Origin: Hyphomicrobiales bacterium
Lineage (GTDB): Bacteria; Pseudomonadota; Alphaproteobacteria; Rhizobiales; Im1
Direction of reading: 5' to 3'
Assembly (NCBI GenBank): GCA_036881905.1
Contig: JBAJNN010000003.1
Location: 27,448 to 91,447 of the forward strand
Length of the DNA stretch: 64,000 nt
A program made the translations under genes and the position numbers. The stretch's first letter is position 1. Every line of letters begins with the position of its first letter. The notes under the pieces were generated by a model. That model made no database searches. It was not told the origin of the DNA and saw nothing but the letters and a program-made list of their open reading frames with translations. Below are positions 28,818-53,357 of the stretch, in pieces.

Positions 28818-29905
28818 TGGAATTCAAGGCTGCGCGCATCGATGCTTTTATGAAAAATCCGGTTCCGGCGGTCAAGGCGGTTCTGATTCACGGTTCCGAT
28901 GAGGGGATGGTGCGCGAATATGCCTGCAAGCTGGTGGCGGTGGTCGCCGGAGCCGTGGATGATGTTTTCAATATTGCGAGACTCGATGACAAGGCTCTTT
29001 TGACCGATCCGGGCCTGCTCGCCGACGAGGCGCGCGCGATCTCGCTCATGGGGGGGCGGCGCGTGGTGTGGATCGGCAATGCGGGAAAAGGCCTTGCCCG
29101 CGCCGCCGGCAATTACCTGCCCGAGGCTCTCGGAGACAGCCTGATCGTCGCCGAGGCGGGCTGGCTGCGCAAGACCGATCCGTTACGGCGGCTTTTCGAG
29201 CGACGCGCCAACGCGCTCGCCGTGGCCTGTTACCCTGACGACACCGCTTCATTGCGCACATTGATCCTCGGCCAGCTCGAAGAGCACGGGCTGACGATCG
29301 CCGCCGATGCGCTGGCGCGTCTTCAGTCCCGGGTTGGGGCCGATCGGATGTTATCACGCTCGGAGGTGGAAAAACTCGTCCTTTATTGCCACGGCCAAAA
29401 TCGGGTCACGCTGCGCGATGTTGACGCCATTGGCGTCGATACCTCGTCTCTCGCCCTCGAATCGATGCTTGACGCGGTGTTTGAGGGCAATCCGAACGGC
29501 GCCGAGAAAACGTATGAACGGCTGACCGGCGCGGGCCTACCGGTGACGTCGATTACTATTACCGCAGCCAATCACATTGCCCTGTTGCAACGCTTGAAAG
29601 CAAGGATCGCCGCGGGGCAATCGGCGCAAACGGTCGTCGCCAGTGCCCGGCCGCCGATATTTTTTGCACGGCGCACTTCGTTTCTGCGCCAGCTCGGCCT
29701 CTGGACTATCGAGGCATTATTCATCGCCGCGGACAATATCGGCGATGCCGAACTCAAAACCCGCGAGCATGCGGCGCTCGCGGCCGACATCGTCGGCCAT
29801 GCGCTTCTCAATCTTGCGTGTCTTGCACAAAGTCGCTCAAGGCGCGGATCTGGTGTTCACTCTAGCGCGCCATTCGATCCGATTGAATCGAACCGGCGCT
29901 TTTAA
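28814..29905 (+). CDS. holA: DNA polymerase III subunit delta
   Basis: MMEFKAARIDAFMKNPVPAVKAVLIHGSDEGMVREYACKLV... is a typical HolA N-terminus at ~340-360 aa. The last ~15 codons lie inside repeat copy A. Confidence 0.7.
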   Translation: MMEFKAARIDAFMKNPVPAVKAVLIHGSDEGMVREYACKLVAVVAGAVDDVFNIARLDDKALLTDPGLLADEARAISLMGGRRVVWIGNAGKGLARAAGNYLPEALGDSLIVAEAGWLRKTDPLRRLFERRANALAVACYPDDTASLRTLILGQLEEHGLTIAADALARLQSRVGADRMLSRSEVEKLVLYCHGQNRVTLRDVDAIGVDTSSLALESMLDAVFEGNPNGAEKTYERLTGAGLPVTSITITAANHIALLQRLKARIAAGQSAQTVVASARPPIFFARRTSFLRQLGLWTIEALFIAADNIGDAELKTREHAALAADIVGHALLNLACLAQSRSRRGSGVHSSAPFDPIESNRRF

Positions 29906-29971
29906 ACTCTTTATTTCGTCTGCATAATCTTGATCGTCCTCGCTTTGCTTGTGGCTCGGATTATGCTCTAG
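29860..29971 (+). repeat. Bipartite palindromic intergenic repeat, copy A (RIME/REP-like)
   Basis: It is bounded by CTCTAG...CTCTAG and contains GATTGAATCG inside a first palindrome. A second hairpin is GCATAATC-N30-GATTATGC. It is similar to copies at 32293, 48004 and 53250. Confidence 0.8.
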
Positions 29972-32283
29972 CGCCGGACGGGCCCTCGATTCTGACGATT
30001 TTCATGAAGACGCTGGGCTTCGACCACCGACAGGGCGGTCATGTTGATCACGCCGCGCACGGTGACCGATGGCGTCAGAATATGGGCCGGCCGCGCCGGA
30101 CCGAGCAGGATCGGTCCGATGGGCAGGGCGTCCGCCATGCTTTTGATAAGCTGGTAGGAAATGTTGGCGGCATCGAGCGTCGGCATAATCAGCATATTGG
30201 CCCGGCCCCTGAGAATGGAATGAGGGAAGATTCGTGTTCTGAGCGTTTCGTCGATGGCGGCGTCGCCATGCATTTCCCCCTCGACTTCAAGGTCTGGCGC
30301 GGTTTTTCGCAGAATGTCCAGGACGTCACGCATTTTGATCGCGGTTTCGGTATCGGCGCTGCCGAAACTCGAATGCGACAGTAGGGCAATCTTCGGTTCC
30401 ATGCCGAAAGCGCGAACCTGCTCGGTGGCAAGCCGGGTCATCTTTGCGAGTTCTTCGGCGCCGGGGTTGGGCTGGACGTAGGTGTCGGCGAGGAAATAGA
30501 CTCCACTCGCCACGATGATCAAGCTGAGAGCGGCGAAATTATCGGCATTGGGGGCGAGCCCGATGACGTCGCGAATATCGCTAAGATGGCGGTCAAAACG
30601 GCCCTCGAGCCCGCAGATCATGGCGTCCGCCTCGCCGCGATGAACGGCCAGCGCGGCAATGACGGTGGTGTTGGTGCGCACGATGGTGCGGGCCAGATCG
30701 GGCGTGACGCCGCGCCGATCGGTTTGCTCAAGGTAGCTTTCGACATACTGGCGATAGCGCGGATCGTCGTTGGGATCGATAATCTCAAAATCCCGCCCTG
30801 GCCGGATCGACAGGCCGTAGCGCTTAAGGCGCGTATCGATCACATTGGGCCTGGCGATCAGGATCGGCTCGGCGATTTTTTCCTCGATCAAGGTCTGGGC
30901 CGCGCGCAAAATGCGTTCATCTTCTCCTTCGGCGTAAATCACCCGTTTCGGTTCGAGCCTCGCCCTGGTAAAGACCGGCTTCATGATCAAACCGGAACGA
31001 AACACAAAGCGGACGAGGCCTTCGTTATAGGCGGTAAAGTCCTCGATCGGGCGGCGCGCCACGCCGGATTCCATGGCGGCCCTGGCGACGGCGGGGGCAA
31101 TTCTCAAGATCAGTCGGGGATCGAACGGCGTCGGGATCAGATAATCGGGTCCGAACAGGCGCACCTCGCCGCCATAAGCCTGTTCGGCAATCTCGGAGGA
31201 GGCTTCATGCGCAAGTTCGGCGATAGCGTTGACAGTCGCCAGTTTCATCTCTTCATTGATCGCGGTTGCGCCGGTATCGAGCGCGCCGCGAAAGATATAG
31301 GGAAAACATAAGACATTATTGACCTGATTGGGATAATCGGAGCGGCCGGTGCAGATCATCGCTTCGGGATTCGCCGCGCGCGCCTCCTCGGGCATGATTT
31401 CCGGCGCCGGATTGGCCAGCGCCATGATCAGCGGGCGCGGCGCCATGCGTTTCACCATCTCGGGGTTCAAGACATTGCCGGCCGAGAGCCCTAGGAAAAT
31501 ATCCGCCCCATCGATAATCTCGCCGAGGCCGCGCTTGTCGGTGTCCTGGGCATAGGCCGCCATCCAGCGATTCATGGTCTCGTCGCGGCCCTTATAAACC
31601 ACACCGTCAATATCGCTGACCCAGATATTGCCTCGGCTGACGCCAAGCGAAACCAGAAGATTGAGGCAGGCGATCGCCGCCGCCCCCGCCCCCGATGTCA
31701 CGACCTTGATGTTGCCGAGGGATTTTTTGGTCAGGATCATGGCGTTGGTCACCGCGGCGGCGACAATGATCGCGGTGCCATGCTGGTCGTCATGAAAAAC
31801 GGGAATATCCATCTTCTCACTCAGCCTGGCCTCGACATCGAAACATTCCGGCGCCTTGATGTCTTCGAGATTGATCCCGCCGAAGGTCGGTTCCAGCGCC
31901 GCCACCACATCGCACAGATGATCGACATTGCGCGAGGAGACTTCTATGTCGAACACATCGATACCGGCGAATTTCTTGAACAGAACCGCCTTGCCCTCCA
32001 TCACCGGCTTTGCGGCGAGCGGGCCAATAGTGCCGAGGCCCAGAACCGCCGTGCCGTCGGAGATGACGGCGACCAGATTGCCGCGCGCCGTCAATTCGGC
32101 GACTTGATCGGGGCGCTCCACGATCTCTTCGCATGCGGCCGCCACGCCCGGGGAATAGGCGAGAGCCAAATCATGCTGGTTGCTCAAAGGCTTGGTCGGA
32201 ACAACCTCGATTTTCCCCGGCCTGGTGTTGCGGTGATAGCCGAGCGCCTGAAGTTTCGTATCCTTCGACATGCTTGATACCAT
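29968..32283 (-). CDS. maeB: NADP-dependent malic enzyme (malic enzyme domain plus C-terminal phosphotransacetylase-like domain)
   Basis: 771 aa. ...[39 protein letters not shown]... plus a PTA-like C-terminal half. Confidence 0.9.
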
Positions 32284-32292
32284 ATCCTCAAT

Positions 32293-32399
32293 TTAGAGCG
32301 GATTGCGTTCAGATTGAATCGCAATACCGCTCTAACATTCTATTTTATAAGCATAATCTTGATCGTCCTTGGCTCTCTCCGGATCGGATTATGCTTTAG
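32293..32399 (+). repeat. Bipartite palindromic intergenic repeat, copy B
   Basis: TAGAGCGG...GATTGAATCG...CCGCTCTA followed by GCATAATCTTGATCGTCC...GGATTATGC. It has the same orientation as copy A and sits immediately upstream of the maeB start. Confidence 0.8.
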
Positions 32400-32639
32400 T
32401 GTTTCGTCTGGATGCAGACCCGTTCGCTTTGTCCAAACGGAGGGTGCGGGAAACAGCTCCATGATCGGGCGGTTTATCGGTGCAAGCCGCCATGGCCACG
32501 ATGACGACATTACCCCTTACATCATAGCGTAATCGGGCCTGGCGACAAACTTATATGTTGAAACTGTGCAGCGCCCATTTTATAATGACCGCATTCCTGT
32601 TTTCCCACCAGAAAAATCGATCCGAAAGGCCTCCCCAAT

Positions 32640-33875
32640 ATGGAGCAGAAATTGCCCCGTAAGCACAAACGTCGCTTTCCTTCGGTGATGGAATTTATCG
32701 CCCTCATGGCCGCGATGATGGCGATGGTGTCGTTGCCCATCGACATTACTCTTCCTGCCTTTCCTACATTGACGCGTGATTTTTCCCTGGCCGGCGCCAA
32801 TACGGCTCAAACCACCGTCACAATCTACACGTTGGGGTTTGCGCTCGGACAAATGTTCTATGGCCCGCTTTCCGACGCTTTAGGGCGCAAGCCGCTCTTG
32901 ATGGTCGGTTTTGCCGTCTCCTGCCTCGCCTCGCTCTTTATTGTCTTCAATAGTAATTTTACATTCCTTCTCGTGGGTCGTTTTTTCCAGGGGGTTGGGT
33001 GCGCCGCCCCCAGAATCATCGCGATAGCAGTGATCCGCGATATGTTCGGCGGACGCCGAATGGCTAAGGTCATGTCCACGATCATTACCGTTTTCGTTCT
33101 GGCGCCGATGTTTGCCCCGAGTATCGGTGGCGTGCTGCTCGCCCTTGGCGACTGGCGATGGATCTTCTGGTTTTTGTTCGTTGTTTCATTGGCCGTTATG
33201 CTCTGGACCAACCTTCGCCTGCCGGAAACCAAACCATCCTACAAGCGCAAATCGTTCTCCATGGCCGCGATGGCGGAAGCGTTCGCCGCGATGTTGGCCA
33301 TCCGTCAGACGCTTGGGTATAGCCTGGCCATCATGTTCATGTTTGGCTGTCTGCTGAGCTGGATCACCTCCGCCCAACAGATTTTCGCCGATATTTACGA
33401 CGTGCATGGAAGCTTTCCGGCCTTTTTCGCCATGATCGCGGGCTGTGCGGCTGTCGGCTCTTTCGTGAACAACCGTCTCGTTATGCGTCTGGGTACGCGC
33501 TTGCTCTCCCACTCGGCGCTCATCGGCATAATCGCCATGGGAGCACTCTTGGTCCTGCTTGCTTCAGCCGGCGTTGTCCCGCTGGTCGGGTTTTGCATCA
33601 TGATAGGCGCGATTTTGTTTGCCTATGCCCTCGCCGTGTCGAACTTCACCCCCCTGGCCATGCATAAGGTGGGCCATATCAGCGGGATGGCCTCGTCTTT
33701 CATCGGTTTTACCCAAACCGCCGGCGGCGGGGTTCTGGGCTACCTTGTCGGTCAAGCCTATAACCACACCATCATCCCCATGACGCTCGGTTTCGTGGTT
33801 TTCGGCCTTGCCTCGCTATTGAGCATCCTGTTTGCCGAGAAAGGGCGGTTTATGAACACTTCGCGAGGCGAATGA
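32640..33875 (+). CDS. MFS transporter, Bcr/CflA-type drug-resistance family
   Basis: 411 aa, 12 TM-like segments, ...GFALGQMFYGPLSDALGRKPLLMVG... (MFS motif A region). Confidence 0.7.
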   Translation: MEQKLPRKHKRRFPSVMEFIALMAAMMAMVSLPIDITLPAFPTLTRDFSLAGANTAQTTVTIYTLGFALGQMFYGPLSDALGRKPLLMVGFAVSCLASLFIVFNSNFTFLLVGRFFQGVGCAAPRIIAIAVIRDMFGGRRMAKVMSTIITVFVLAPMFAPSIGGVLLALGDWRWIFWFLFVVSLAVMLWTNLRLPETKPSYKRKSFSMAAMAEAFAAMLAIRQTLGYSLAIMFMFGCLLSWITSAQQIFADIYDVHGSFPAFFAMIAGCAAVGSFVNNRLVMRLGTRLLSHSALIGIIAMGALLVLLASAGVVPLVGFCIMIGAILFAYALAVSNFTPLAMHKVGHISGMASSFIGFTQTAGGGVLGYLVGQAYNHTIIPMTLGFVVFGLASLLSILFAEKGRFMNTSRGE

Positions 33876-33896
33876 CAGCCATCGACAGAGGGGCGC

Positions 33897-35639
33897 TCAC
33901 CCTTTACCGGTTTTGGGCCCGTAATTCGGCTTGTCCCTCGATCGATCGCGAAACGCCACATTCGCCGCGTTGAGAACGGCTTTGAGCGAGGCCGTCGCGA
34001 TGTCCGCGTCGATACCGACGCCAAAAACCGTGGAGCCGTCGCCGGTGCGGCATTCGATATAAGCGGCGGCGGGGGCGTCTGTGCCTTTCCCCAGCGCATG
34101 TTCTTGATAATCGACAACCGCCAGAGCGACGCCGCAATCGTTCTTGAGCGCGTCCAGCGCTGCGGATACGAGGCCGGTCCCGGCGCCGGAGATAATATGT
34201 TCCTCATTGCCGGCTCGGATGCGACCTTTAAAAGCTCGCGCCCGATCGGGTGTGTCAGCACCGCTCTCGGTATAATCGATGAGCGAGAAACGCTGCGGCG
34301 CGTCAAGGCAATAGGTTTTCGTGAACGCATCCCAGACGTCCCGAACCGTCAGTTCCCTGCCGGTTGCATCGGTGATGGCCTGGACCTTGTGGCTGAAATC
34401 CTGTTGCAGATGGCGCGGTAGTTTCAGACCCTTGTCACGCCATAGAACCCAAGCCACACCGCCTTTGCCCGACTGGCTGTTCACGCGGATGACCGCCTCG
34501 TAAGATCGCCCCAGATCCGCCGGATCGACGGTAAGATAGGGAATGTTCCAGATGGAATCATTGCGCTTCTCGCGGGCCTCGAAGCCTTTTTTGATCGCAT
34601 CTTGATGTGAACCGGAAAAAGCGGTGAACACGAAATCGCCGGCATAAGGGTGGCGTGGATGAACCGGGATTTGCGTACAGCATTCCACCATATTCACAAC
34701 CTCGTCGATATTGGAAAAGTCGAGGCCGGGAGCGACGCCTTGAGAGTAAAGATTGAGGGCTTGGGTTACCAGATCGACATTGCCGGTGCGTTCGCCATGG
34801 CCGAACAGGCACCCTTCCACGCGATCGGCACCGGCCATGACGGCAAACTCGGAGGCCGCCACCGCCGTTCCGCGGTCATTATGTGGGTGGGCGCTGATCG
34901 TCACGCAATCGCGTCTTGAAATGTTGCGGCAAAACCATTCGATCTGATCGGCGTAAATATTCGGCGTGGCGCTCTCCACCGTTGCCGGCAGGTTGAAAAT
35001 CACTGGGTGATCCGGCCTCGGTCGCCAAACCTCCAGCACGGCTTCGCAGATTTCCAGGGCAAATTCGGGTTCGGTCGATGAAAAGGCCTCCGGCGAATAT
35101 TCAAAAGTCCATTGTGTGGCGGGTCGTCTGGCGCTTTCGTCCGCAATCCGCTTCGCGCCGGAAACGGCCAGTTGTATGATCGCCGATTTATCCATGCCGA
35201 ACACCGTGCGGCGGAAAACCGGCGCGGTGGCGTTGTAAAAATGAACGATGGCTCTGCCGACACCATCCAAAGCGTCGAAAGTGCGCGAAATCAGATCGTC
35301 GCGAGATTGGGTGAGAACCTGAATGCTCACGTCTTCGGGGATTAGCACCGTATCGATCAAATGGCGAATGAAATCGAAATCGGTTTTCGAGGCCGAGGGG
35401 AAACCGACTTCTATCTCCTTGAAACCGGTTTTGACCAGAAGGTCGAAAAGCCGCAGCTTTTTCTCAATGGTCATGGGATTAACGAGAGCCTGATTGCCGT
35501 CGCGCAGATCGACCGAACACCATCTTGGCGCGGAGTTTATACGTTTCGAGGGCCAAGTACGCTCGGGCAAATCGATTCCAGAATCGAATGGCCGGTATTT
35601 AGTGTCCGGATTGCTCAACATAAGACAAGAAGCTCCCAT
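33897..35639 (-). CDS. leuA: 2-isopropylmalate synthase (long LeuA form)
   Basis: ...[42 protein letters not shown]..., ...[11 protein letters not shown].... The probable start is ATG 35621. Confidence 0.9.
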
Positions 35640-35757
35640 GGTTATTGTTTCGTAGTGACCGGTAAAGTTCAGAAAAAATCCCTAGACTTCAGTTTATATG
35701 AATATCCAGCATAGCACAACACGAATGACAACCACCATGGGCCGCTGGTCTGGTCTT

Positions 35758-37812
35758 CTATATCCTATCTCGGCAGGAAGGGCCCGACACGGCGGTCAGA
35801 CGGTGGAACCGTATCAGACCGATCGCGATAAACATGGTCGCAAGCCCGGCGACCGGCCCGACAATCCGGTAATCGGGACAAAAGATCGTCACGCCGCACA
35901 GCCCGGCCAGAGCGAGGCGCAGCGCAATATCAAGGATACGGCGTTGATGGAGTCGCGCCTGAAAGGCCAGAGACAAGCCCAGCGTGGCGATACTCACGAC
36001 GAGACAAGCGGGAATTTGGCCGAATCCGGGTGCTACGACCAACTCCGGTCGCGCGAATATTGCGGCCATCATCACCATCAGCGGCATACATATGACAAGC
36101 GCCGCCATCATGGTACGGATGAAAGAGGCGTTGGCGATGCGTGAGGTAACCGCGGCCACAACCGAGGTCGGCGGCGACAATTCACCGAAGACCGCGACGA
36201 AGAAGGCAAAGAAGTGAACCACCCAAGGGTCGAGACCGGCCTTGATCATGAAGGGTGCAATCACCACGGCGGTGATGATATAGGTGGGCGAGACCGGTAG
36301 CCCCATGCCGACGATATAACCGAAACCGAAAGCCACCAGCGCCAGAACGGCGATGTTGACGCCGGCACCTGCCATAAGCAGGGTTCCCAGCTTGGTGGGA
36401 ACCCCGGTTATGGTGAACAGCGCCGTCAGAATGCCGAGCGTGGCGAGGAGATGGGTCAGTTCGGCGGTAATGACGGAAAAGAATTCGATCAGTTTCAGGA
36501 ACGGCCGCACCAGTGTTTTCAGGCTGAATATACCCTCTCGCCGGACACGCCATAAAAACTGGGCTGTCAGGGCCATGGTCATGACGATGAAGACACGCCG
36601 CGCCGAGGCCATGGCGGGTTGTTGCATCACCCCCATGAGCCAGATCAGCCCGATAACGCTCATGGCATAGATTGCGAGGTTGAGTTTATCGACGCCGGTC
36701 AGCTCCGCCATCTCTGGCACTGTGGCATGGCGGTGGTATCTGGTCGCAAGCAGATAAACCGAGAAGGCGACGCCGATAAAATAAACCAGGGCCGGCGCGA
36801 AGCCACGCGCGACAACGTCAAAATAGCTTTTGCCGAGATAGTCCGCCATGATGAAGGCGGCGATTCCCATCAATGGCGGAGTGATCTGGCCGCCGAGTGA
36901 GGCTGCGGTTTCCACCGCCGCGGCTGTTGTGCGCGGAAATCCGGCCTTGATCAGCACCGGGATGGTGGCCGAACCGGTGATTGCGGCATTGGCCGCGCCG
37001 GACCCGCTGACGGCGGCCACACATAGCGAGCCGATGACGGCGGTCTGGGGCAAAAGACGCGGGCGACGCCGGGCAATGCGCGACGACGCGGTGAGAATCG
37101 AATCGATACAACCGAATGCCCTGAGCGCGGCCAGCACCAGAATGAAAGACCCGATAAGGGTCAGGGCGAGTTGGGGAAGACGTGAAAAAATGCCGGTCGA
37201 CATTTCCACGCTGGTGGCGCTCAAAACCCGCGCCCATGGCATGCCGGGATGGTGAAATAATCCCGGTATGACGAAGCCGTAAACCGTATAGGCGATAAGA
37301 ATGAGATTGAAGACAAACAGGATAAAATAGTGTCGCCTCGTGTATTCAAGAACCAGCGCCACCATGAGGCCGCCGACCGCGAGGTCATGGTTATTCCACA
37401 CCCCGATGCGATAAATGCGTATGACGTCGAACTCATGGGTAAGATACCATGCCGAATAAACGCAGAGCAGACTATAGGCCAGAGCGACACCGTACCGGAC
37501 CCCCACCCTCCAGCGAGGGTAGAACCGGCCTGTCGCCAGATCATTCACTATCAGAATGATCATGACCATCGGCACGGCCATGACGGCAAGCCGCGATGAG
37601 CCACCATGGCCCGTCATATAATAGTAGAATAGAGAGCAAGAGAAGGCGGTGGAGACGAGGTAAAAGGTAACGCGACTTGCGACCCGAAGAGCCTGAACGG
37701 ACGGTGATTTGCTGCCCGCGGCAGTGTTTAGGGAGGTGGTATCCATCGCATTGCCGTCAATATGAACGGGCCCGTTACTCACCTCGCGCATTCCCTTGCG
37801 GGTTATGACCAT
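35758..37812 (-). CDS. TRAP transporter fused permease (TAXI-associated, DctQM-like fusion)
   Basis: 684 aa and highly hydrophobic. It lies directly downstream of a TAXI-type binding protein gene (12-nt gap). Confidence 0.7.
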   Translation of the reverse strand: MVITRKGMREVSNGPVHIDGNAMDTTSLNTAAGSKSPSVQALRVASRVTFYLVSTAFSCSLFYYYMTGHGGSSRLAVMAVPMVMIILIVNDLATGRFYPRWRVGVRYGVALAYSLLCVYSAWYLTHEFDVIRIYRIGVWNNHDLAVGGLMVALVLEYTRRHYFILFVFNLILIAYTVYGFVIPGLFHHPGMPWARVLSATSVEMSTGIFSRLPQLALTLIGSFILVLAALRAFGCIDSILTASSRIARRRPRLLPQTAVIGSLCVAAVSGSGAANAAITGSATIPVLIKAGFPRTTAAAVETAASLGGQITPPLMGIAAFIMADYLGKSYFDVVARGFAPALVYFIGVAFSVYLLATRYHRHATVPEMAELTGVDKLNLAIYAMSVIGLIWLMGVMQQPAMASARRVFIVMTMALTAQFLWRVRREGIFSLKTLVRPFLKLIEFFSVITAELTHLLATLGILTALFTITGVPTKLGTLLMAGAGVNIAVLALVAFGFGYIVGMGLPVSPTYIITAVVIAPFMIKAGLDPWVVHFFAFFVAVFGELSPPTSVVAAVTSRIANASFIRTMMAALVICMPLMVMMAAIFARPELVVAPGFGQIPACLVVSIATLGLSLAFQARLHQRRILDIALRLALAGLCGVTIFCPDYRIVGPVAGLATMFIAIGLIRFHRLTAVSGPSCRDRI

Positions 37813-37824
37813 GCTCTCCCGGCG

Positions 37825-38898: not shown

Positions 38899-38977
38899 GA
38901 ACCGTTTAACAATTTACCACTCCCCATTCCCTGTAAGCAAGAGAATAATTTCTTTATCAAGACCGTGGCGACAAGGC

Positions 38978-41212: not shown

Positions 41213-41351
41213 TTTTACAATGCCGATGGTCAGTCTTAATGCCAGCATATCTATATTTCTGAACGGTTGGACATGCAAGGATTTTGTGTAAAACTTTATT
41301 AACCCCACTGTGTCACTATCCACCTCAGCGATGACGTATCGGGGTACGGTT

Positions 41352-42680: not shown

Positions 42681-42905
42681 AACGGCGAGGCTTGGGGTGC
42701 CGGAAACTATATTCCACGTCAATGTTTCACGTGAAACGCCCCTTTTCGTGGAACGGATAACATAAAGGGAGGTCTCAGCCCGAACACCACGCAAAAACAC
42801 ATTGTCGAAAGGCTCGACTTGCAAACGTCGCCAGTGTCGCTATAGTCATGCCCACGCTTCCCGCCAAGTGCGATAACGAGATGGTCAATTTCAGGAGTTG
42901 ATTGA

Positions 42906-43253: not shown

Positions 43254-43338
43254 CCGAGTTGGCGATTGAGCGGCCTCCAGCCCCATGGCGAAAAACGTTA
43301 GTTCCCCGCTCGGGGAAGGATGGGGCACGGAACGATCA

Positions 43339-44949: not shown

Positions 44950-44997
44950 TGCGTATCCACACTCAAAAGGCTCAAGCCCAGCATAGGGAAACCCGTC

Positions 44998-45945
44998 ATG
45001 CGTTTGCTTCGCTTCGTTCCGGACAATACAGCCATCGCCTTCATGCGCCTGTCGCGTGTGGCCTATCTGTGTTCCAGCCTTGGCCTTCTTGCCTCACTTG
45101 TCTTGTTTTTCACCATGGGACTAAACTATGGCATCGATTTTCGCGGTGGAACTCTAGTCGAGATCAAAACGAAAACCCCGGCCCGAATTGCCGAGCTGCG
45201 CTCAACGCTTGCGACGCTCGGCCTTGGCGAGGTTGAAATACAGCAGTTTGGCGCCAGCGACGACATACTTATAAGATTGGTGCGCCAACCGGGGGGCGAT
45301 GACGCCCAACAAGACGCCGTCGGCCGGCTCAAACAGGCCCTCGGGCCCGACGTCACCTATCGTCGCACCGAGGTTATCGGCCCGAAGGTCTCCAAAGAGC
45401 TTGCCCGTCAGGGTACCATTGCCGTTTTGGCAGCCGTGATGGCGGTCCTGATTTACATCTGGTTGCGCTTCGAATGGCAGTTTGCCATTGGCGCGGTGCT
45501 GGCGCTGGTGCATGATATCACGCTGACCATTGGAATATTCTGTGTTTTTCAGTTCCAGTTCACTTTATCGATCATTGCCGCGTTGCTCACCATTGTCGGC
45601 TATTCTCTGAACGACACCGTGGTCGTTTATGACCGCATTCGTGAAAATCTGCGTAAATATAAAAAGAAGCCACTGCCGGAGCTCATCGATCTCTCGATCA
45701 ACGAAACCCTGTCACGCACGACATTGACCTCGTTCACGACAGTGCTGGCCTTGCTTGCTTTGTACATTTTCGGCGGGGAGGTGATCCGTGATTTTACCTT
45801 CGCCATGCTCTGGGGAGTGGTTGTTGGGACGTATTCATCGATTTTCGTGGCTTCGCCGCTCCTGATCACGCTGGGTATGATGAAGCGTAATAGGGGGCAG
45901 GGTGATCTTTCACCGCAAAAACAAACCCATACCTCGCAGTGCTAA
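44998..45945 (+). CDS. secF: Protein translocase subunit SecF
   Basis: ...GLNYGIDFRGGTLVEIKT..., ...GYSLNDTVVVYDRIRENLRKYKK... Confidence 0.9.
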   Translation: MRLLRFVPDNTAIAFMRLSRVAYLCSSLGLLASLVLFFTMGLNYGIDFRGGTLVEIKTKTPARIAELRSTLATLGLGEVEIQQFGASDDILIRLVRQPGGDDAQQDAVGRLKQALGPDVTYRRTEVIGPKVSKELARQGTIAVLAAVMAVLIYIWLRFEWQFAIGAVLALVHDITLTIGIFCVFQFQFTLSIIAALLTIVGYSLNDTVVVYDRIRENLRKYKKKPLPELIDLSINETLSRTTLTSFTTVLALLALYIFGGEVIRDFTFAMLWGVVVGTYSSIFVASPLLITLGMMKRNRGQGDLSPQKQTHTSQC

Positions 45946-45972
45946 CGGTTTTGCCCGCTCGCCGCCACAATC

Positions 45973-46863
45973 ATGTTTTTATCCAGCTTATTCATGAGGG
46001 CCACTAGGATTGCAGATGGGGCAGGGAAGGGCGAGGCTTGGCGCTACTGCCTCGATCTGGTGCGCAAAACCGATAAGGACCGCTTCCTGTCGGCCCTGTT
46101 TGCTCCGGACCAACACCGCATGCCGCTTCTGGCGCTTTATGCCTTCAATGTCGAGACGGCGCGTATATGCGAACATATCAGCGAGCCGATGCTGGGAGAA
46201 ATTCGGCTGGAATGGTGGCATGGCGAGGTGGCCGGGCTTTTTGCCGGCCGGGTTGGCGATCACCCGGTTCTGCGCGCGCTCTCTGGCCCGGCGATGAGCG
46301 GAAGACTGTCGCGGCGAGGGCTGGAGACTCTGCTGCAAGCCCGCCGTTTCGACCTCTATGATGATTCTATGCCGACAGTTGATGATCTTGAGAGCTACCT
46401 TGACAAGACATCGTCGTCGCTGATTGAAATGGCCTGCTCCATTCTTGCCGGAGAGGGTGGGGCGACGGCCGCGCGAGCAGCCGGCGTTGCCTACGGTCTT
46501 GTCGGGCTGATGCGGGCTTTGCCGATCCATAACCGGCATGGACAATGTTACATACCAGCCGATCTGCTCAAAATGCACGCGATGACCCGCGCCGACATTG
46601 TCTCCGGCCTGTGGAGCAGGCCCTATGGCGAGGTCCTGGCAACGCTGCGCCGCATCGTGCGCGATCGGCTGTCACAAGCGCGGATGTATGCACAAAACCT
46701 GCCGCCCCGCCTGCTACCGGCGTTTCTACCGGTCAGTCTGGTTGATCTTTATCTCAAACAGTTGGAAAGCGCGGTAGCGCAATCTGTAAAACAGACAGGC
46801 GATGTGTCGCAACTGCGAAAACAGTGGCGGTTATGGTCTTGTGCATTACGTGAAAGATTTTAA
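45973..46863 (+). CDS. Phytoene/squalene-synthase-family protein (NDUFAF6-like)
   Basis: ...YCLDLVRKTDKDRFLSALFAPDQHRMPLLALYAFNVETARI...; the position downstream of secDF is common in Rhizobiales. Confidence 0.65.
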   Translation: MFLSSLFMRATRIADGAGKGEAWRYCLDLVRKTDKDRFLSALFAPDQHRMPLLALYAFNVETARICEHISEPMLGEIRLEWWHGEVAGLFAGRVGDHPVLRALSGPAMSGRLSRRGLETLLQARRFDLYDDSMPTVDDLESYLDKTSSSLIEMACSILAGEGGATAARAAGVAYGLVGLMRALPIHNRHGQCYIPADLLKMHAMTRADIVSGLWSRPYGEVLATLRRIVRDRLSQARMYAQNLPPRLLPAFLPVSLVDLYLKQLESAVAQSVKQTGDVSQLRKQWRLWSCALRERF

Positions 46864-47542
46864 AATCGCGCGAGGGTGGCATCTTCGGTCTGAAAAACAG
46901 CTTTTCAGACTGCCTCCACAGGCACTATCGCGTTCGGCGGCTTCGCGTGAGGGAACCAGACGGCGCAACAGTCCGAATGGAGCGAGCGGAACGAAAGCGA
47001 CGCTCAGTTTCACGTAAAAATCGCCGCCGGCCCAACCTGTCCAAATCGGTGCATCAATGTTAAACCAACCAAGGGAATAGGTGGTCGTCTCAAGGTCGGT
47101 ACCGGCGAAAGCCAAGGTAAAAAACCAGACAGTGTCGATCAATGATCCGAGTATGGATGATGCCAAAGGCCCCTCCATTTTTCGTGTCCGAGGCGATCGA
47201 ATATGAAAACGTCAAGCAGCTTAAGCGATCGAGAAAGTACCGGCCGAGGCGAATGCGATGCGCATTGTGGCCAGGATCGTTGATAAAATTGCCGCCGGCG
47301 CGAACCCGGCATAAACCATATAACGCGCAATAGCCGGTCCACAGCGGCGATTGGTCAGATCGGTGACGAAAAGGCCGGCGGATAGGTGAACGCTCCCCAG
47401 GTTAGCCGGTTTTCAAGCCCAAAGGGTTCAAACCGGTATTGCACCGGAATATTCGAGGTGATGACCACGATGGCCATGGCGCCGATCGCAACCATGGAAA
47501 GGACTTTACCAGGTATCGAAGCACCTGTTTTCTACGTCTCAT
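46846..47542 (-). pseudogene. yhhQ: Queuosine-precursor transporter (YhhQ/DUF165 family) disrupted by 3-4 frameshifts
   Basis: Homology to E. coli YhhQ is spread over different frames. The fragments are [15 protein letters not shown]; MVAIGAMAIVVITSNIPVQYRFEPFGLENRLTWGAFTYPP; LFVTDLTNRRCGPAIARYMVYAGF...SAGTFSIA; LLDVFIFDRLGHEKWRG; and PLASSILGSLIDTVWFFTLAFAG... The total span of ~232 codons matches family length. The ATG at 47542 overlaps the rpmB stop (ATGA). Confidence 0.65.
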
Positions 47543-47844
47543 GGTCTGTCTGGAGAAGAATTGGCGATGACACTCTTGTGAATACGGCGTTTGAGGCGGC
47601 GCGCTTTTAGGGATAAGGTCTGCTCGCGGGCCTTGACCAGAAAGGCATCGAGCCCGCCGCAATGCTCCACATCTCTTAAGGCCTTGGCGCTGATGCGGAA
47701 ACGATAAGATTGCCCGATGGCATCGCTCACAAGGTGCACATTGGACAAATTGGGCAGAAAACGGCGGCGCGTCCTGTTATTCGCATGGCTGACATTATTG
47801 CCTGCGAGTACGCCTTTTCCGGTCAATTCGCAACGACGGGCCAT
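47539..47844 (-). CDS. rpmB: 50S ribosomal protein L28
   Basis: [41 protein letters not shown]... Confidence 0.92.
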
Positions 47845-48003
47845 GACAATACTCCTCAATCTCCTGGTACAAGGATGTTCAGTTCCTCAAATCCTCTGCC
47901 GGTCGGCGTCGACATGAGCAACCCGACCAAGCTGAACGCACTCGCGGCCGGCAGAGAATTTTAACAGTTTACTCCTATAGGACGTGCGACCGTTATCGTC
48001 AAG

Positions 48004-48110
48004 CTAGAGCATAATCCAACCGGAGCGGAGCGAGGATCGACAAGATTATGCTTAAAAAACAATCAATTATGGTATTTTCCGTGGCAATGGAATCATGGAA
48101 AATGCCCTAG
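48004..48110 (-). repeat. Bipartite palindromic intergenic repeat, copy C (inverted relative to A/B)
   Basis: CTAGAGCATAATCC...GATCGACAAGATTATGC, then a different second palindrome GGTATTTTCC...GGAAAATGCC, ending in CCTAG. Confidence 0.75.
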
Positions 48111-48171
48111 TGCCGAATGGCGTGTCGACTTATGCGGCGTCGGCCCCGAAAATATACTAGGACTCTCGACC

Positions 48172-49035
48172 ATGACGTTTTTTTCATCGAACCATTTTTT
48201 ATCGAAGCGCCGCCTTTTTCTGTTCAGTTCCGCCCTTATCGCCATCGGGCTTTCGCAACCGGCCGCTACGGCGGAGATCGAACCCATATCCCTGGCTTAT
48301 GACGTCTCCATCAGAGGGATACGCGTTTCCACCATCGACCTTAAGATTGACCTCAAGCCACAAGGTTACGACGCTACCTTGGAAACCGACACAGTCGGGC
48401 TTGCCGGCTGGTTTTTCGACGAGGCCATCTCTTCAAGTGTGTCGGGAACCTTCATTAACGGCAACCCCCGTGCGGCACACTATCATCTGGAGGACAGCAA
48501 AGGTAGTCGAACGAAACTCATCGACGTTGATTGGTCGGGTACAGAGGTGAGGACCAGACGCTCCTACACACTTGATTCCAAGAGGGCTTCCGCCATCCGC
48601 AAAGTGTTGAAACCGGATATGTTCGATCCCATTTCGACCGTATTGCGGCATGCGCTTGAGGCGGAGAATATATCGTGCAAAGGCAAAAGGCGCATTTATG
48701 ACGGCAAGGAAGTGTTCGACCTTGAGTTCAAATTTTTGCAAGCAGACACTTTCGGTGTCGGCGATGCCGGTGTTTACCGCGGACCTTCTTTTGTTTGCCG
48801 GGTGGCATATAAGCCGGTCGCCGGGCAATCGAAGCGTAAACTGGAACGCATTGCCAAAAATCCGATACGCTACCGGGTCTGGTTTGCGCTGGTCTATGCT
48901 CAATCTCTCGGCCGTAATCTGATTTTGCCGGTCGCGGCCACCGGTAAAATCAAGGGCTATGACGCCGTCATCGTCACTCGCGCGGCCACCATCGGCGGCA
49001 AGCCGTTAAACGGGCAATCCCTGACGAAACGTTGA
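48172..49035 (+). CDS. DUF3108-domain protein (secreted, beta-rich)
   Basis: It has a signal-peptide-like N-terminus (...LFLFSSALIAIGLSQPAATAE) and a beta-strand-like composition. The rpmB-adjacent position is what I recall for Rhizobiales DUF3108. Confidence 0.5.
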   Translation: MTFFSSNHFLSKRRLFLFSSALIAIGLSQPAATAEIEPISLAYDVSIRGIRVSTIDLKIDLKPQGYDATLETDTVGLAGWFFDEAISSSVSGTFINGNPRAAHYHLEDSKGSRTKLIDVDWSGTEVRTRRSYTLDSKRASAIRKVLKPDMFDPISTVLRHALEAENISCKGKRRIYDGKEVFDLEFKFLQADTFGVGDAGVYRGPSFVCRVAYKPVAGQSKRKLERIAKNPIRYRVWFALVYAQSLGRNLILPVAATGKIKGYDAVIVTRAATIGGKPLNGQSLTKR

Positions 49036-49044
49036 TACGGCCGT

Positions 49045-50286
49045 TCACATCGGCCAGGTTCGTTCGTCTTCGGGGTTGACGATTGCGCCGTTCTGTCCAT
49101 CGGATTTCTGTTCGACAAACAGAAGACAGGCCGGAATGGCAATTCCCATGACGACCAGCCCGGTCAAGGGGAAGATCACGCTGCCGAAGCTGGCCGGGAC
49201 ATTGAATAACGCCAGAGCGAACACAAGCGGCAGCCCGGCATTGACGGCCCTGAACGCCACGGTGATCCGACCGCCCCACAACGCCGAGTCCCTGTGGCTC
49301 CGCAGCTGCCCGAAAACACCGCGGCGGATTCTGATGCGGGTCGAATTGAAGCCGAAACCGATGATGAAGGAAAAAAGGAGCGCCAATTCCGTTCCAAGCG
49401 GCCAGACGACACCCACATCGCCCACCACCACGGCGAAACAGGCCGCATAGGCGAGATATTTCCACGAGGACAGGGGGATGAAGGTCGCAATCAACGCACC
49501 CACCCCGGCGGCGGCGCTCACCAAGCCATAATCGGCCGCCGTCATGCTCTCCCGGCTTTCGTAAATAAGCGGAACGAAAAAGTTGAATCCACCGATCTGA
49601 ATGGCCAGAATGCCCATGCAGGCCGTGAGAATCCAAAGAATTTGCCTTCTGCCCTTGCTGTCTGAAGGATTCTCCGGACCATCGTCATGAGGTTGGGCGC
49701 GCGATTGGTGAGCCGCCGAGTGAAACGCATCGGCAAAAAACAGAAGCAACAGACTGGCGGCGAAACTCGCGGCAATGGCGATGAAGACATAGCGGGTGCC
49801 GAATTGGGCGATCAGCAGACCGGCCAGGGCATTGCCGGCAAAGACGCCAAGCTGAATCGCCGTTTGCGATAATCTTGAAGCCTGGTCCGCATCAAGCACT
49901 CCGGCAATGGTCAACTGCCCCATCAGGGTTTCAATGCATTGCTGGCTGATAAAGATAATAAAGGTCAGATAAGCGGCGATGATCACCAGAGACAAGAGGG
50001 TGTAGTCACTGATGGCCAGACCGGCGTAAAGCGCCGCGGGAATGCCGACAATACGGGAGAAAACGATCATCGACAGCGGTCGCCGGTCGATGGCGTTGCG
50101 CAATGGCTTGAACAGAAACTGCGCCAGAAAGGGAACGATATTCATCACGAAAAGGGTCACGCCGATCACGAAAGGCGATTGGCCGAGCCTGGCGCTGGTC
50201 CACAAAAGCCCGACCGTGACCATTCCTTCACCGAGCATGGTGACCGCCAGCAGAAAGACAAAGATGAAAATGGATTTTTTGCTCAT
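49045..50286 (-). CDS. MFS transporter (last gene of the YqcI/cupin/ATP-grasp operon)
   Basis: MSKKSIFIFVFLLAVTMLGEGMVTVGLLW..., 413 aa, about 12 TM-like segments. The ATG at 50286 overlaps the ATP-grasp stop (ATGA). The upstream part of the listed 492-aa ORF is Arg-rich and non-membrane. Confidence 0.7.
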   Translation of the reverse strand: MSKKSIFIFVFLLAVTMLGEGMVTVGLLWTSARLGQSPFVIGVTLFVMNIVPFLAQFLFKPLRNAIDRRPLSMIVFSRIVGIPAALYAGLAISDYTLLSLVIIAAYLTFIIFISQQCIETLMGQLTIAGVLDADQASRLSQTAIQLGVFAGNALAGLLIAQFGTRYVFIAIAASFAASLLLLFFADAFHSAAHQSRAQPHDDGPENPSDSKGRRQILWILTACMGILAIQIGGFNFFVPLIYESRESMTAADYGLVSAAAGVGALIATFIPLSSWKYLAYAACFAVVVGDVGVVWPLGTELALLFSFIIGFGFNSTRIRIRRGVFGQLRSHRDSALWGGRITVAFRAVNAGLPLVFALALFNVPASFGSVIFPLTGLVVMGIAIPACLLFVEQKSDGQNGAIVNPEDERTWPM

Positions 50287-51560
50287 CGCTTCATGTCCTC
50301 CATCGTGAATATGAGGTTTTGTCGTTCGAGGTCCCGAATCCGTGCAATGTCGGTTTCGACAATTGCCGGATTGTCGTGAGACAATTCGATCATGGCCGGG
50401 CAGGTGACAAGATCGACGGTTTCGGCGATGGCTTCTCCTCGCCTGACAAGCCAGCACGCTTTCACAAAAGAAGGCAGCGACTCGATAACTTTTCGGCCTG
50501 GAATATCCGACAGAAGGCCGCAACGCTCATTGCCAAGAAAACACACCGATGCCGCGCGGATTTTTCTGATGGTAAGCGGATCGCGCCCGCGCTGTCGCGA
50601 GGGGAGAGAGGCGTCGATCAACGCATCAAGGAAAGACGGCTGAATATTGGAATCGATCACGCAAGCCCCGATACCGCCATGGGCGCGGGCGGCGATTTCA
50701 ACCAGCAAAGGCCCGCTCGCAGTCAGCATGATTTCCGCGTGAACCGCTCCAACCTCGATGTCAACCGCCCTTGCCACCGTCTCGCAATAGGCAATGATTC
50801 TCGGGTCGATGGCCGGATCATTGGGAGCGTGGAAGTCGATCCGGTCATAGATCATCGCCCCCTCGCGATCGAGCTTGCGATACCGACCCACGGCGAAGAC
50901 CGTCAGCCCCGCCGCGGACATGATCCCGTCCACCGTGTGTTCAACGCCGCGCATGAATTCCTGGACCAGAACCCCGCCGGTGTTGTTGGCGTATTTATCG
51001 CCATGTTCAAGAATGAAGGCGGCATGTCGTTCGAGACAACGCCGATCATGGCAAATGCGAACCAGATCGCTTCCCGAACTGGCTTCCGGCTTGACTACGA
51101 CCGGAAATCCCACCTTTTCGGCCCATGCCAGGCAAGCGCGAACCGAATCGCAGCGCCTCTGCGCGCAAATTTCGATTCCGTTTGCCTGAACCACCGCCAT
51201 CATCCGGGTCTTGTTGCGGCGTTTGTCGGTGGTTTTTGGATCGTTGCCGGGCAGGCCGAAGCGTGAAGCCAGCTCTTCGGCGAGGCGAACGCCGCTTTCA
51301 GCCCCGGGAATAACGGCATTCAGACCGACCCGGTCGAGTTTGGCAATGAAATCGGGATCGGTTTGACGATAGATGGCCGGAAAGACACTCTCGGTTCCTT
51401 CAAAATCGCGGGTGAAGATCGCCACGCAATCGGCATTCCTCTCCATCAGGCGTTTGGCGATGAAGGCACCGGCGGAGTTAGGATCGACGACGCCGACCGC
51501 CAGCCCGGACAAATCGCGGCCATCCAACGACCGGGGCGGAGAGGGAGAGTGTCGCGTCAT
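50283..51560 (-). CDS. ATP-grasp domain protein (amino-acid/carboxylate-amine ligase-like)
   Basis: ...GFPVVVKPEASSGSDLVRICHD..., ...GGVLVQEFMRGVEHTVDGI..., ...GAVHAEIMLTASGPLLVEIAARAHGG... give the canonical ATP-grasp motif order. Confidence 0.7.
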   Translation of the reverse strand: MTRHSPSPPRSLDGRDLSGLAVGVVDPNSAGAFIAKRLMERNADCVAIFTRDFEGTESVFPAIYRQTDPDFIAKLDRVGLNAVIPGAESGVRLAEELASRFGLPGNDPKTTDKRRNKTRMMAVVQANGIEICAQRRCDSVRACLAWAEKVGFPVVVKPEASSGSDLVRICHDRRCLERHAAFILEHGDKYANNTGGVLVQEFMRGVEHTVDGIMSAAGLTVFAVGRYRKLDREGAMIYDRIDFHAPNDPAIDPRIIAYCETVARAVDIEVGAVHAEIMLTASGPLLVEIAARAHGGIGACVIDSNIQPSFLDALIDASLPSRQRGRDPLTIRKIRAASVCFLGNERCGLLSDIPGRKVIESLPSFVKACWLVRRGEAIAETVDLVTCPAMIELSHDNPAIVETDIARIRDLERQNLIFTMEDMKR

Positions 51561-51566
51561 GGCCTG

Positions 51567-51884
51567 TCACCGCGCGCCAATGGGAAGGTCGCGAAAGGCA
51601 ATGATATAGATGGCGCCTTGCGATCCCGCCGTCGATTTGTGCAATGCGTCGGCCGAAAGGCGCAAAACATCGCCCGGACCACAGCGATGATCGCCCCCTT
51701 CAAGCGAAAACGTCATTTCACCTTCCAGGACGATCAGCGTTTCCGCATTGGCGTGGTGGTGCCAGTCATGGACTTTCCCGGGCGCATCGCGTTGAATCTC
51801 GACGCAACCCTGCTCGGGGAGCATCCCGATGATGCGGTCGATGGAGGAAAAACCGATAGCGGCGTTTTTGACGATCTCGGTCAT
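51567..51884 (-). CDS. Cupin-domain protein
   Basis: ...GKVHDWHHHANAETLIVLEGEMTFSLEGGDHRCGPGDVLRLSADALHKS... matches cupin motifs 1 and 2. The ATG at 51884 overlaps the upstream stop (ATGA). Confidence 0.65.
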   Translation of the reverse strand: MTEIVKNAAIGFSSIDRIIGMLPEQGCVEIQRDAPGKVHDWHHHANAETLIVLEGEMTFSLEGGDHRCGPGDVLRLSADALHKSTAGSQGAIYIIAFRDLPIGAR

Positions 51885-52567
51885 GGTGTCGCCCACTCTC
51901 CATGATGATGATTCGCGCGGTTCGTCTCGAACAGTGTGCGAAACGGACAAGCGGTCCGCTCATTGTCGTCACCGAGGAAATATTGTTGATATTCATAAAC
52001 ACCGGGGGCGCCGTATTTGCCAAGAGAAGGCGACACCGGCACCAAATCATAAGGGGCCAGCCGTTTCCGGACCGTGGAAAATGCCTGCTCGGCCGCCTTG
52101 TCGGTGCCCAGAATCTTATCGAACACCCATCGCGGCTGAAACGTCACCATAAAACAACTGGACCGCCGGCTCTGCCGCAACAGATGCGCGGGCGTGTTGC
52201 AAATGACGAAGACGGGTTCCCCGGCGAAGCTGAACTCCCACAGCGGATCGCAGAGCTCGACGGGGATATGATCCGGCCACGGGCGGTTGTCTTGCCGAAC
52301 AAGCTCACGCAGCAGGGACCAGAATTTCTTGCGATAAACATCGAGAGGCAGGATCGCGTCCGGCTTGGTGAACAAAACCAGGGAGGTATTGGGGCCGAAG
52401 GATCGCGCTTGGCTTAGAAACGCGCCGAGGGAGACCGCCAGCGAGCGAACATCGACACTGTCATGAAAGACATAGCGCAACTGGTCGCCTTTGTAACCCC
52501 GGACCCCGAAAATACACGGGAACGGGCGCTCCACGCTCCCCATCAACGAGGAAAACTCCGAAAACAC
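51881..52567 (-). CDS. YqcI/YcgG-family protein (DcsA-like; putative heme-dependent N-hydroxylase family)
   Basis: ...ERPFPCIFGVRGYKGDQLRYVF..., ...PLWEFSFAGEPVFVICNTPAH..RQSRRSSCFMVTFQPRWVF..., ...VRKRLAPYD... match my memory of PF08892. The start is uncertain: GTG 52567 or ATG 52543. A further 24 family-like codons (..GEGTWQRI) are open upstream but contain no canonical start codon. Confidence 0.6.
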   Translation of the reverse strand: MFSEFSSLMGSVERPFPCIFGVRGYKGDQLRYVFHDSVDVRSLAVSLGAFLSQARSFGPNTSLVLFTKPDAILPLDVYRKKFWSLLRELVRQDNRPWPDHIPVELCDPLWEFSFAGEPVFVICNTPAHLLRQSRRSSCFMVTFQPRWVFDKILGTDKAAEQAFSTVRKRLAPYDLVPVSPSLGKYGAPGVYEYQQYFLGDDNERTACPFRTLFETNRANHHHGEWATP

Positions 52568-52648
52568 AATTCGCTGCCATGTCCCTTCGCCATGGCGACG
52601 TTCGATATCGCAACGGGCCAGAATGCGCGGCTCACTGAATTACCTTCC

Positions 52649-53201
52649 CTAGCGAATTACCATTAAGAACACCGTAGCATTATAAAATCCTTCAAACAAG
52701 CGTCTCGAAAACTGCATGGCGATCATACCGAGCACGGCGCCAAGGTCGGCGGCGGCAATGTCAGGGCCGATTATGAAACCGCGTTGCCCACGGCGTGCCG
52801 CCAGGGTCACGTAAGCCATGAAGAGCGAGAAAACCATGGCAAGCGCTCAGCACCCGGGCCAATAATGATGCGGCAAGAACAGCCACCGTCGTGAAAATCG
52901 CCATATAGGAAAAATAATCGCGTAACAGTAGAGCAAACTGCCGGCGTGAAAACCGAAGGCGCCATGATGCCGCTGGACAACGAGGCGCGCGCCGCTTTCC
53001 CAATCGGATGTGACGGCCATGAAGGGTCATATGAACATGGCCAGCATAAAGCTCGGAGAAATTGACCAACCGATTCTTGGGAAAGCTGTATCCCGGATCG
53101 ACGACAAGAAAGAGCGCCAGAACGGCTGACGTCTGGGAAAGCGTCGAGAAAATGAAAGGAGCCAGCAGAATCAGCCGGAATTGCGCGCCGTTATCGCTCA
53201 T
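52649..53201 (-). pseudogene. Hypothetical membrane protein, apparently split by a frameshift (ORFs 52761..53201 and 52649..52837)
   Basis: Two overlapping minus-strand ORFs each carry TM-like segments (LILLAPFIFSTLSQTSAVLALFLVV; YMAIFTTVAVLAASLLARVL; MVFSLFMAYVTLAA; LGAVLGMIAM). No family was recognised. Confidence 0.25.
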
Positions 53202-53249
53202 GCCAATATCGCCCGTTGGGCCATTCGCCTCACATCACCACCTGAGAAT

Positions 53250-53357
53250 CTAGAGTATAATCCGACCAAAGCGCGAGCGAGGATCGACAAGATTACGCGG
53301 TCGAAATCAAGAGTTAAGGGTGCCGACTCGATTCAATCAAATCGAACGGTGCTCTAG
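53250..53357 (-). repeat. Bipartite palindromic intergenic repeat, copy D (same orientation as C; closest to the reverse complement of A)
   Basis: CTAGAGTATAATCCGACC...GATCGACAAGATTACGC...CGATTCAATCAAATCGAACGGTGCTCTAG aligns almost end to end with the reverse complement of copy A. Confidence 0.8.

Follow-up and report, generated by a model that had tools for sequence, protein, structure and literature searches.

Palindromic repeats in a small Hyphomicrobiales genome are probably miniature transposable elements of the Bru-RS/RIME type

Brucella carries the palindromic repeats Bru-RS1 and Bru-RS2, 103 and 106 bp in length according to the passage on them in PMC10800456; that paper, PMC3163539 and PMC2266754 cite Halling and Bricker (1994) on these repeats, which are reported to be hot spots for IS711. 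Here we analyse four stretches of similar size and build, copies A to D, within 64,000 nucleotides of DNA (hereafter, the window; C3:27448-91447, where C and a number denote a contig) from the assembly of a Hyphomicrobiales bacterium. With a probability of roughly 78%, we read them as copies of a non-coding miniature transposable element (MITE) of the Bru-RS/RIME type of the Rhizobiales. RIME1 and RIME2, reportedly described by Osteras, Stanley and Finan in 1995, are said to be intergenic mosaics of two large palindromes, 108-109 bp in length, in rhizobia. The literature that we searched held no description of how Bru-RS/RIME repeats spread, and a full-text search for words of the element's sequence gave no relevant match.

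The initial annotation had proposed a family of four copies. All four were recovered where it had placed them (copy A from 29862) and aligned over their full length with a mean column identity of 70%. A profile hidden Markov model built from these copies was run with nhmmer over the assembly (2.03 Mb in 48 contigs, 57% G+C, 96% completeness). In the window it found just these four; genome-wide the family is far larger, with 92 full-length (E values from 1e-26 to ~1e-5) and 38 partial matches, which excludes chance similarity. An absence of further copies, which by the initial annotation would have refuted the family, is thus clearly not what the genome shows. All matches together amount to 13.2 kb, or 0.65% of the assembly. 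About a dozen contigs start or finish in a copy; the repeat thus breaks the assembly.

The unit reads Y-TA-GAGC...GCTC-TA-R and measures 102-114 bp from TA to TA; the stretch from GAGC to GCTC, with TA on either side, takes up ~101-110 bp. A T-rich linker separates the left hairpin from the right hairpin, GCATAATC-N26-35-GATTATGC. C (57 copies) or T (29 copies) precedes the 5' TA in 86 of 91 copies, and G (48 copies) or A (22 copies) follows the 3' TA in 70 of 92. TAGAGC and GCTCTA are ~85-95% conserved at the element ends, and beyond the YTAR positions the composition equals that of the background. This conservation of Y-TA and TA-R shows that the unit is bounded by YTAR words, mostly CTAG. 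The genome has 826 CTAG sites, or 0.41 per kb against an expected 3.7 per kb, which is an approximately nine-fold under-representation. A sizeable share of these sites are ends of the repeat.

Orthologous loci in the Brucella/Ochrobactrum clade, filled in some genomes and empty in others, record how the unit inserts. At locus 1, B. pecoris has ...GATTATTT-TA-GAGCGCG...(101 bp)...ATGCTC-TA-GCTGGCTGG, whereas B. cytisi and B. oryzae have ...GATTGTTT-TA-GCTGGCTGG; the core of the comparison is TTT[TA]GAGCG...GCTC[TA]GCTGG (filled) versus TTT[TA]GCTGG (empty). At locus 2, a B. tritici isolate and B. pecoris carry ...TTTCCCGC-TA-GAGCATAATCC...GCGCTC-TA-ACAAAAAAGCGCCGG, whereas B. tritici LMG 18957, B. 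cytisi and B. rhizosphaerae show ...CCCGC-TA-ACAAAAAAGCGCCGG, or the same with small differences. Here the core is CCCGC[TA]GAGCAT...GCGCTC[TA]ACAAAAAAGCGCC versus CCCGC[TA]ACAAAAAA in three other species. At locus 2 the element landed in the TAA that ends the upstream gene, immediately ahead of the terminator of that gene, and the first G of the element turns this stop into TAG. A third orthologous locus had a complex, non-collinear spacer and was left out of the comparison. Target-site duplications, for which the initial annotation had proposed to look, are therefore present at two independent loci: each insertion is precise and has duplicated the TA, in TTAG at locus 1 and in CTAA at locus 2. 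This is the signature of a cut-and-paste or copy-and-paste DNA transposon that targets TA, and not of a Y1 transposase of the RAYT (REP-associated tyrosine transposase) kind. In the Hyphomicrobiales genome itself, abutting copies share a single TA (C5:80672-80673 and C4:8803-8804); together with the Y-TA...TA-R ends, these shared dinucleotides point to the same duplication.

The element would target the TA within YTAR words (CTAG, TTAG or CTAA) and duplicate this TA, as it has done in the relatives and presumably did here. Its first base being G, each end would recreate TAG, and a gene whose TAA or TAG stop was hit would remain properly terminated. Such ends would account for the many copies that sit exactly on gene ends, and would let new copies stack on the CTAG ends of old ones. 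Movement would depend on a transposase supplied in trans.

Approximately 19 element ends provide the TAG at which an open frame of at least 190 codons stops, and 25 genes from the crude calls end within an element. The repeats had been described as intergenic, which needs qualification: about one fifth of the copies abut a gene and supply its TAG stop, as copy A does for maeB. Free YTAR sites number 254 at stop codons versus 2,682 in intergenic DNA. Stop codons were hit in ~15-20% of landings, which is about double the rate expected if harmless YTAR sites were used at random and far above the expectation for random placement within spacers.

Three left-arm variants, L1, L2 and L3, have unrelated stem sequences, yet each still forms a hairpin of 13-16 bp. 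In all three, GAATC lies at the 3' loop/stem junction, and 64-70 of 91 copies have it at that position. The right arm is common to all variants; its outer stem of 8-9 bp is nearly invariant, and its inner part is variable. RNAalifold, applied to the mixed alignment, recovered the outer right stem alone. Because the left variants pair in different registers, covariation in the left arm was judged by inspection and not by a formal count. Most copies fold far better than shuffled sequence (median z score -3.5), and about one fifth do not. Some loci have a single left arm and then two to four right arms, linked through a fixed junction of ~12 nucleotides, TCTCCTTAYAGCC, in a mosaic that resembles BOX or BIME elements. 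The junction possibly arose by unequal recombination, or is a separate mini-module.

Homologous units are widespread in the order. In BLAST searches against plasmid records, full-length homologues were found on pAt plasmids of Agrobacterium tumefaciens and on a plasmid of Rhizobium sp. ACO-34A; a search of the same records with the common consensus added Rhizobium daejeonense, Allorhizobium pseudoryzae, Sinorhizobium fredii NGR234 (one full-length copy on the megaplasmid) and S. sojae. The exact right-arm pattern, searched in one genome per prokaryote species, matched more than 110 stretches, with hosts that include Rhizobium, Allorhizobium, Shinella, Mesorhizobium, Chelatococcus and a dozen Brucella/Ochrobactrum species. 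In these genera the unit measures ~104 bp and is strikingly uniform, TAGAGCGCGTTTCGATCTGATTGAATCAGATCGGCGCTCTAAC...AAGCATAATCTTATCGATCCTCGTTTCACTCCGGTCGGATTATGCTCTAR; most copies from other genera also carry GAATC. All 14 genomes of the Brucella/Ochrobactrum clade that were queried, a set without classical B. abortus and B. melitensis, contain dozens of copies each, with 85-93% mutual identity. A covariance model built from 36 copies gave full-length matches in 56 of the 301 genomes, and 34 of the 129 genera, of the order that were scanned. Within the bacterium's own family (five species) the model matched one relative, with two weak hits. The exact right-module pattern, which is too strict for this purpose, had no match in 60 relatives outside the genome studied here.

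Parts of the unit occur elsewhere. Plasmid pASEM-1 of Asticcacaulis excentricus (1500-1605) has a similar left arm (85% identity) and linker with a different right hairpin, and in two uncultured alphaproteobacterial genomes the outer right stem is retained around a different inner hairpin; these different or hybrid right hairpins read GATTCCGAAAA...TTTTCGGAAT and GCATAATCTTGTCCGAAAAGT...ACTTTTCGGGATTATGC. The shared layout with different right hairpins indicates that modules have been exchanged across orders of Alphaproteobacteria. On plasmids of Bartonella sp. HY the left arm alone (positions 1-43) matches in 4-7 places per plasmid; these matches may belong to a solo left-module family.

Counted by the exact pattern, the genome studied here has 40 copies in 2.0 Mb (20 per Mb), compared to at most 9 per Mb elsewhere; the next densest genomes are those of R. 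paknamense (49 in 5.3 Mb), A. undicola (22 in 4.1 Mb) and B. pecoris (24 in 5.1 Mb). The mean pairwise identity of its copies is 64%, and the median identity to the nearest neighbor is 85%, versus 91% in R. paknamense. The family in this genome is old and mostly decaying, and probably no longer mobile. The coding density, from crude calling of open reading frames (ORFs), is ~79%, which is low for a genome of 2 Mb. A burden of 0.65% in a 2-Mb genome of such coding density would fit the expansion of selfish DNA under relaxed selection.

IS630 and the IS427 group of IS5, to which IS711 of Brucella belongs, typically duplicate TA at CTAG or YTAR. Because both groups share this habit, the enzyme that moved the element is most likely of the DDE type, from IS630 or IS5/IS427. 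GAATC and the invariant outer right stem are likely to be the features that this putative transposase recognizes. The partner was sought on those contigs of the assembly that exceed 10 kb; short-read bins often lack insertion sequences. One candidate was considered and rejected: a single IS5/IS427-like copy at C2:97975-98795 is decayed by frameshifts and stops, and its ends, GGGTCCGG, are unrelated to those of the repeat. This decayed copy directly follows the CTAG of a gene. The initial annotation had also suggested looking for a RAYT or IS200-like gene. The sole PF01797 (Y1_Tnp) gene, at C46:1560-1923, encodes an IS200/IS605-type TnpA of 130-140 amino acids with HUH and Y motifs; it is frameshifted, and its contig contains no copy of the repeat.

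Several observations weigh against reading the family as a MITE. The assembly holds no autonomous partner and no match to DDE_3/IS630 (PF13358), and the IS5/IS427-like copy just mentioned does not qualify. No insertion sequence with matching terminal inverted repeats was found in the assembly, to which this search was confined. The terminal inverted repeat of the unit is itself short, GAGC and one further base in L1 and L2 and ~12 bp in L3, which is unusual for MITEs mobilized by DDE enzymes. The filled and empty pairs come from Brucella/Ochrobactrum alone, and the genome studied here is that of the one species of its genus that the comparison covered. Insertion at TA does not explain the tandem arrays of right arms with their TCTCCTTAYAGCC junctions. 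Finally, the near invariance of the right hairpin across distant genera and the fixed position of GAATC suggest a constraint beyond that on pure junk, although a constraint imposed by transposase recognition would look alike.

The window copies illustrate both the architecture and its decay (Table 1). Ends of the CTAG/TTAG type, the GCATAATC...GATTATGC hairpin and the A/T-rich linker were all found in them as the initial annotation had described; the start sequence that it took to be shared is not, since copy A opens with TAGCGCG and not TAGAGCG. Also borne out was a second palindrome centered on GATTGAATCG in copies A, B and D, and a differing one in copy C. In the orientation of the element, the palindrome of the former three is the left one and is centered on ATTGAATCG; that of copy C is not unique, and defines the third left-arm subfamily. 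The right stem of copy D is GCGTAATC/GATTATAC. When folded as single-stranded DNA and compared to shuffled sequences, copy B reached a z score of -7.0 (-25.2 kcal/mol), whereas A, C and D reached -1.8, -2.2 and -0.2, respectively. Copy B, which is also the top match of the covariance model (115 bits), is thus the sole intact copy in the window; A, C and D are eroded, and D has largely lost its hairpins.

Table 1. Copies of the repeat in the window, left-arm variants and tandem right-arm arrays (copy positions are those of the window; arrays are given by contig).
Feature	Position	Strand	Left arm	Ends and motifs	Context or number
Copy A	29862-29971	+	L1	C-TA 29862-29864; TA-G 29969-29971; GAATC 29885-29889	between convergent 363-amino-acid ORF and maeB
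Copy B	32293-32399	+	L2	T-TA 32293-32295; TA-G 32397-32399	best preserved
Copy B, left hairpin	32294-32335			GAATC 32316-32320	
Copy B, T-rich linker	32336-32349				
Copy B, right hairpin	32351-32358 and 32387-32394			GCATAATC pairs with GATTATGC	
Copy C	48004-48110	-	L3, GCATTTTCC...GGAAAATAC	C-TA-G 48110-48107; TA-G 48006-48004; without GAATC	eroded; 63 nucleotides upstream of DUF3108 gene (48172-49035)
Copy D	53250-53357	-	L1	C-TA-G 53357-53354; TA-G 53252-53250; GAATC 53334-53330	eroded
Left-arm variant L1			TAGAGCGCCGTTCGATCCGATTGAATCGAACCGGCGCTCTTAA		~26-30 copies; window copies A, D
Left-arm variant L2			TAGAGCGGATTGCGTTCAAATTGAATCGCAATCACGCTCTA		~46 copies; window copy B
Left-arm variant L3			TAGAGCATTTTCCGTGGCAATGGAATCACGGAAAATTCTCTA		at least 13 copies; window copy C
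Right-arm array	C45:2560-3510			period 56-60 bp	outside window
Right-arm array	C2:78420-78690			period 56-60 bp	outside window
Right-arm array	C25:26850-27100			period 56-60 bp	outside window
Right-arm array	C21:16930-17200			period 56-60 bp	outside window

Two of the copies flank maeB, whose product has malic and PTA_PTB domains. The minus-strand TAG stop of this gene is the terminal CTA of copy A (29968-29970), where an open frame of 774 codons ends. From the other side, the convergent ORF (28814-29905, plus strand) extends 46 nucleotides into copy A; its product had no Pfam match at E <= 1e-5. Copy B lies in the divergent spacer between maeB and an MFS-transporter gene and ends 10 nucleotides upstream of the maeB start, beside the Shine-Dalgarno sequence. 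Effects of copies on neighboring genes, such as that of copy B near the maeB ribosome-binding site, would be incidental; individual copies may still be of consequence, with copy B at maeB as the example.

The alternative that survives best, though we consider it improbable, is that the repeats are structured elements selected by the host (terminators, stabilizers of mRNA 3' ends or sites for nucleoid proteins, as proposed for BIMEs), so that function and not mobility lies behind their conservation. The two strong hairpins, the preservation of the left stem's length across three unrelated sequences and the near identity of the right module across genera would all suit such a role, as would the many copies right behind stop codons and the T-rich tract after the left hairpin; however, this tract does not directly follow the stem, and many copies, including A, C and D, have lost their hairpins. 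Orientation to the upstream gene shows no preference either: in tandem gene pairs, 24 copies are oriented with the genes and 26 against them. Spacers between convergent, tandem and divergent genes are used 15:50:11 times, compared to an abundance of 282:987:293 (crude gene calls). There is thus no enrichment at convergent gene ends, and copies in divergent promoter regions, such as B and C, are as common as chance expects. The two strands fold equally well (the forward strand is lower in 43 of 91 copies, p = 0.24) with no one-strand excess of G-U pairs, of which there are 274 on the forward and 237 on the reverse strand, a small difference. A strand-specific RNA was rejected on these grounds: no asymmetry in fold energy, no orientation bias and little difference in G-U pairs. 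An Rfam scan of the window at the gathering threshold returned a tRNA only. Neither orientation, spacer use, folding, Rfam nor the age of the copies argues for a selected role as terminator or small RNA.

A second alternative, which we regard as very unlikely, starts from the resemblance of GAATC to the GANTC site of the methyltransferase CcrM. The repeats of Caulobacter known as CIR reportedly (Chen and Shapiro, 2003) have a CcrM site central in one inverted repeat, and methylation of GANTC in the left hairpin could likewise couple the element or its neighbor genes to the cell cycle. GAATC occupies its fixed place in all left variants and in most copies of other genera, and the plasmid with the similar left module belongs to Asticcacaulis, a member of the Caulobacteraceae. 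However, none of the 12 PF01555 matches in the genome is CcrM-like by eye, no ADPPYN-type motif occurs in any of the six frames of the assembly, and copy C and about one quarter of all copies are without GAATC. CcrM may be missing, or may be encoded within the unassembled 4%. As an observation apart, the twelve matches to PF01555 (N6/N4 DNA methyltransferase) in 2 Mb include three ParB-methyltransferase fusions.

The least probable alternative, and one that we consider very nearly dismissed, is a REP/BIME-like family spread by a RAYT (HUH/Y1) enzyme acting on the hairpins as single-stranded DNA: the units are indeed palindromic, high-copy, extragenic and mosaic with repeated modules, and one Y1_Tnp gene is present, but this gene is a frameshifted IS200/IS605-type tnpA with no repeats nearby, two identical inverted REPs are nowhere paired as in a REPIN, and the TA duplication at YTAR in both filled and empty pairs, which Y1 transposition does not make, already largely refutes it.

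Read as a MITE, the family is real, but an ordinary kind of selfish DNA. A fuller account can be offered tentatively, and taken as a whole it is rather doubtful. In this account the repeats are "stop-codon-safe" MITEs, whose TA|G ends allow harmless insertion into TAA or TAG stops and into each other's CTAG ends. Their hairpin modules, of which Alphaproteobacteria have three left stems and at least three inner right stems, would be cassettes open to exchange and put together through nested insertion and recombination, and GAATC with the outer GCATAATC/GATTATGC stem would be read by the putative transposase. The family has its highest density seen in the reduced 2-Mb genome studied here, where it would now shape the 3' ends of genes and a few C-terminal tails. 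For annotation, it matters that the units break short-read assemblies, can be mistaken for small RNAs or terminators, and supply the stops of ~20-25 genes along with a few C-terminal residues. The filled and empty sites permit a clean reading of the mechanism, TA duplication at YTAR with stop codons serving as harmless targets, in a repeat family that has been known since 1994-95.

The initial annotation had likened the repeats to RIME or to BIME/REP. The likeness to RIME holds, in that the family is high-copy and modular, has two hairpins, is of the same size and has rhizobial homologues; the likeness to REP/BIME does not, given the TA duplication and the lack of an intact RAYT. BIME/REP elements depend on RAYT and make no target duplication, whereas the elements described here show duplication of TA. 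Both the BOX elements of pneumococcus and the BIMEs of enterobacteria are modular mosaics with one tandem module; the corresponding arrangement here takes the form L-(R)n, in which the junction is fixed.

RUP of Streptococcus pneumoniae (IS630-Spn1) and the Correia elements of Neisseria are non-coding elements of ~100-150 bp with TA duplication, mobilized in trans. The repeats described here share with these MITEs the non-coding sequence, inverted ends, TA duplication, high copy number and insertions beside genes. Unlike in RUP and Correia elements, the terminal inverted repeat is very short and no parent insertion sequence was found in the assembly; in place of one long inverted repeat there are two separate hairpins, and modules are swapped and tandemly repeated.

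RIME1 and RIME2, compared here by size and layout, have a similar two-palindrome layout and size, and homologues of the present unit occur in Rhizobium, Allorhizobium, Agrobacterium and S. fredii NGR234. A BLAST search of S. meliloti plasmid records with the element gave no match; RIME1 and RIME2 proper are probably different sequence families, or rare on megaplasmids. By layout, they may be regarded as a structurally equivalent relative.

Bru-RS1 and Bru-RS2 appear to be the closest named family, judging from size, the two-palindrome build and the hosts (Brucella/Ochrobactrum and Rhizobium). Their lengths, 103 and 105-106 bp, compare with 102-114 bp here, and both families are palindromic, intergenic and high-copy. 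The CTAG/YTAR ends described here would fit the role of Bru-RS as hot spots for IS711, an element that duplicates TA at YTAR. In all of the Brucella/Ochrobactrum genomes queried, homologous units are numerous, and the published Bru-RS repeats were compared by host, size and architecture only. Copies in the present genome are only ~73-76% identical to the common Rhizobiaceae/Brucella type, from which they also differ in having two extra left arms (L2 and L3) and a variant inner right stem. The family in this genome is a diverged branch of the known Bru-RS/RIME kind, with three left-arm variants and an unusually high density in a small genome.

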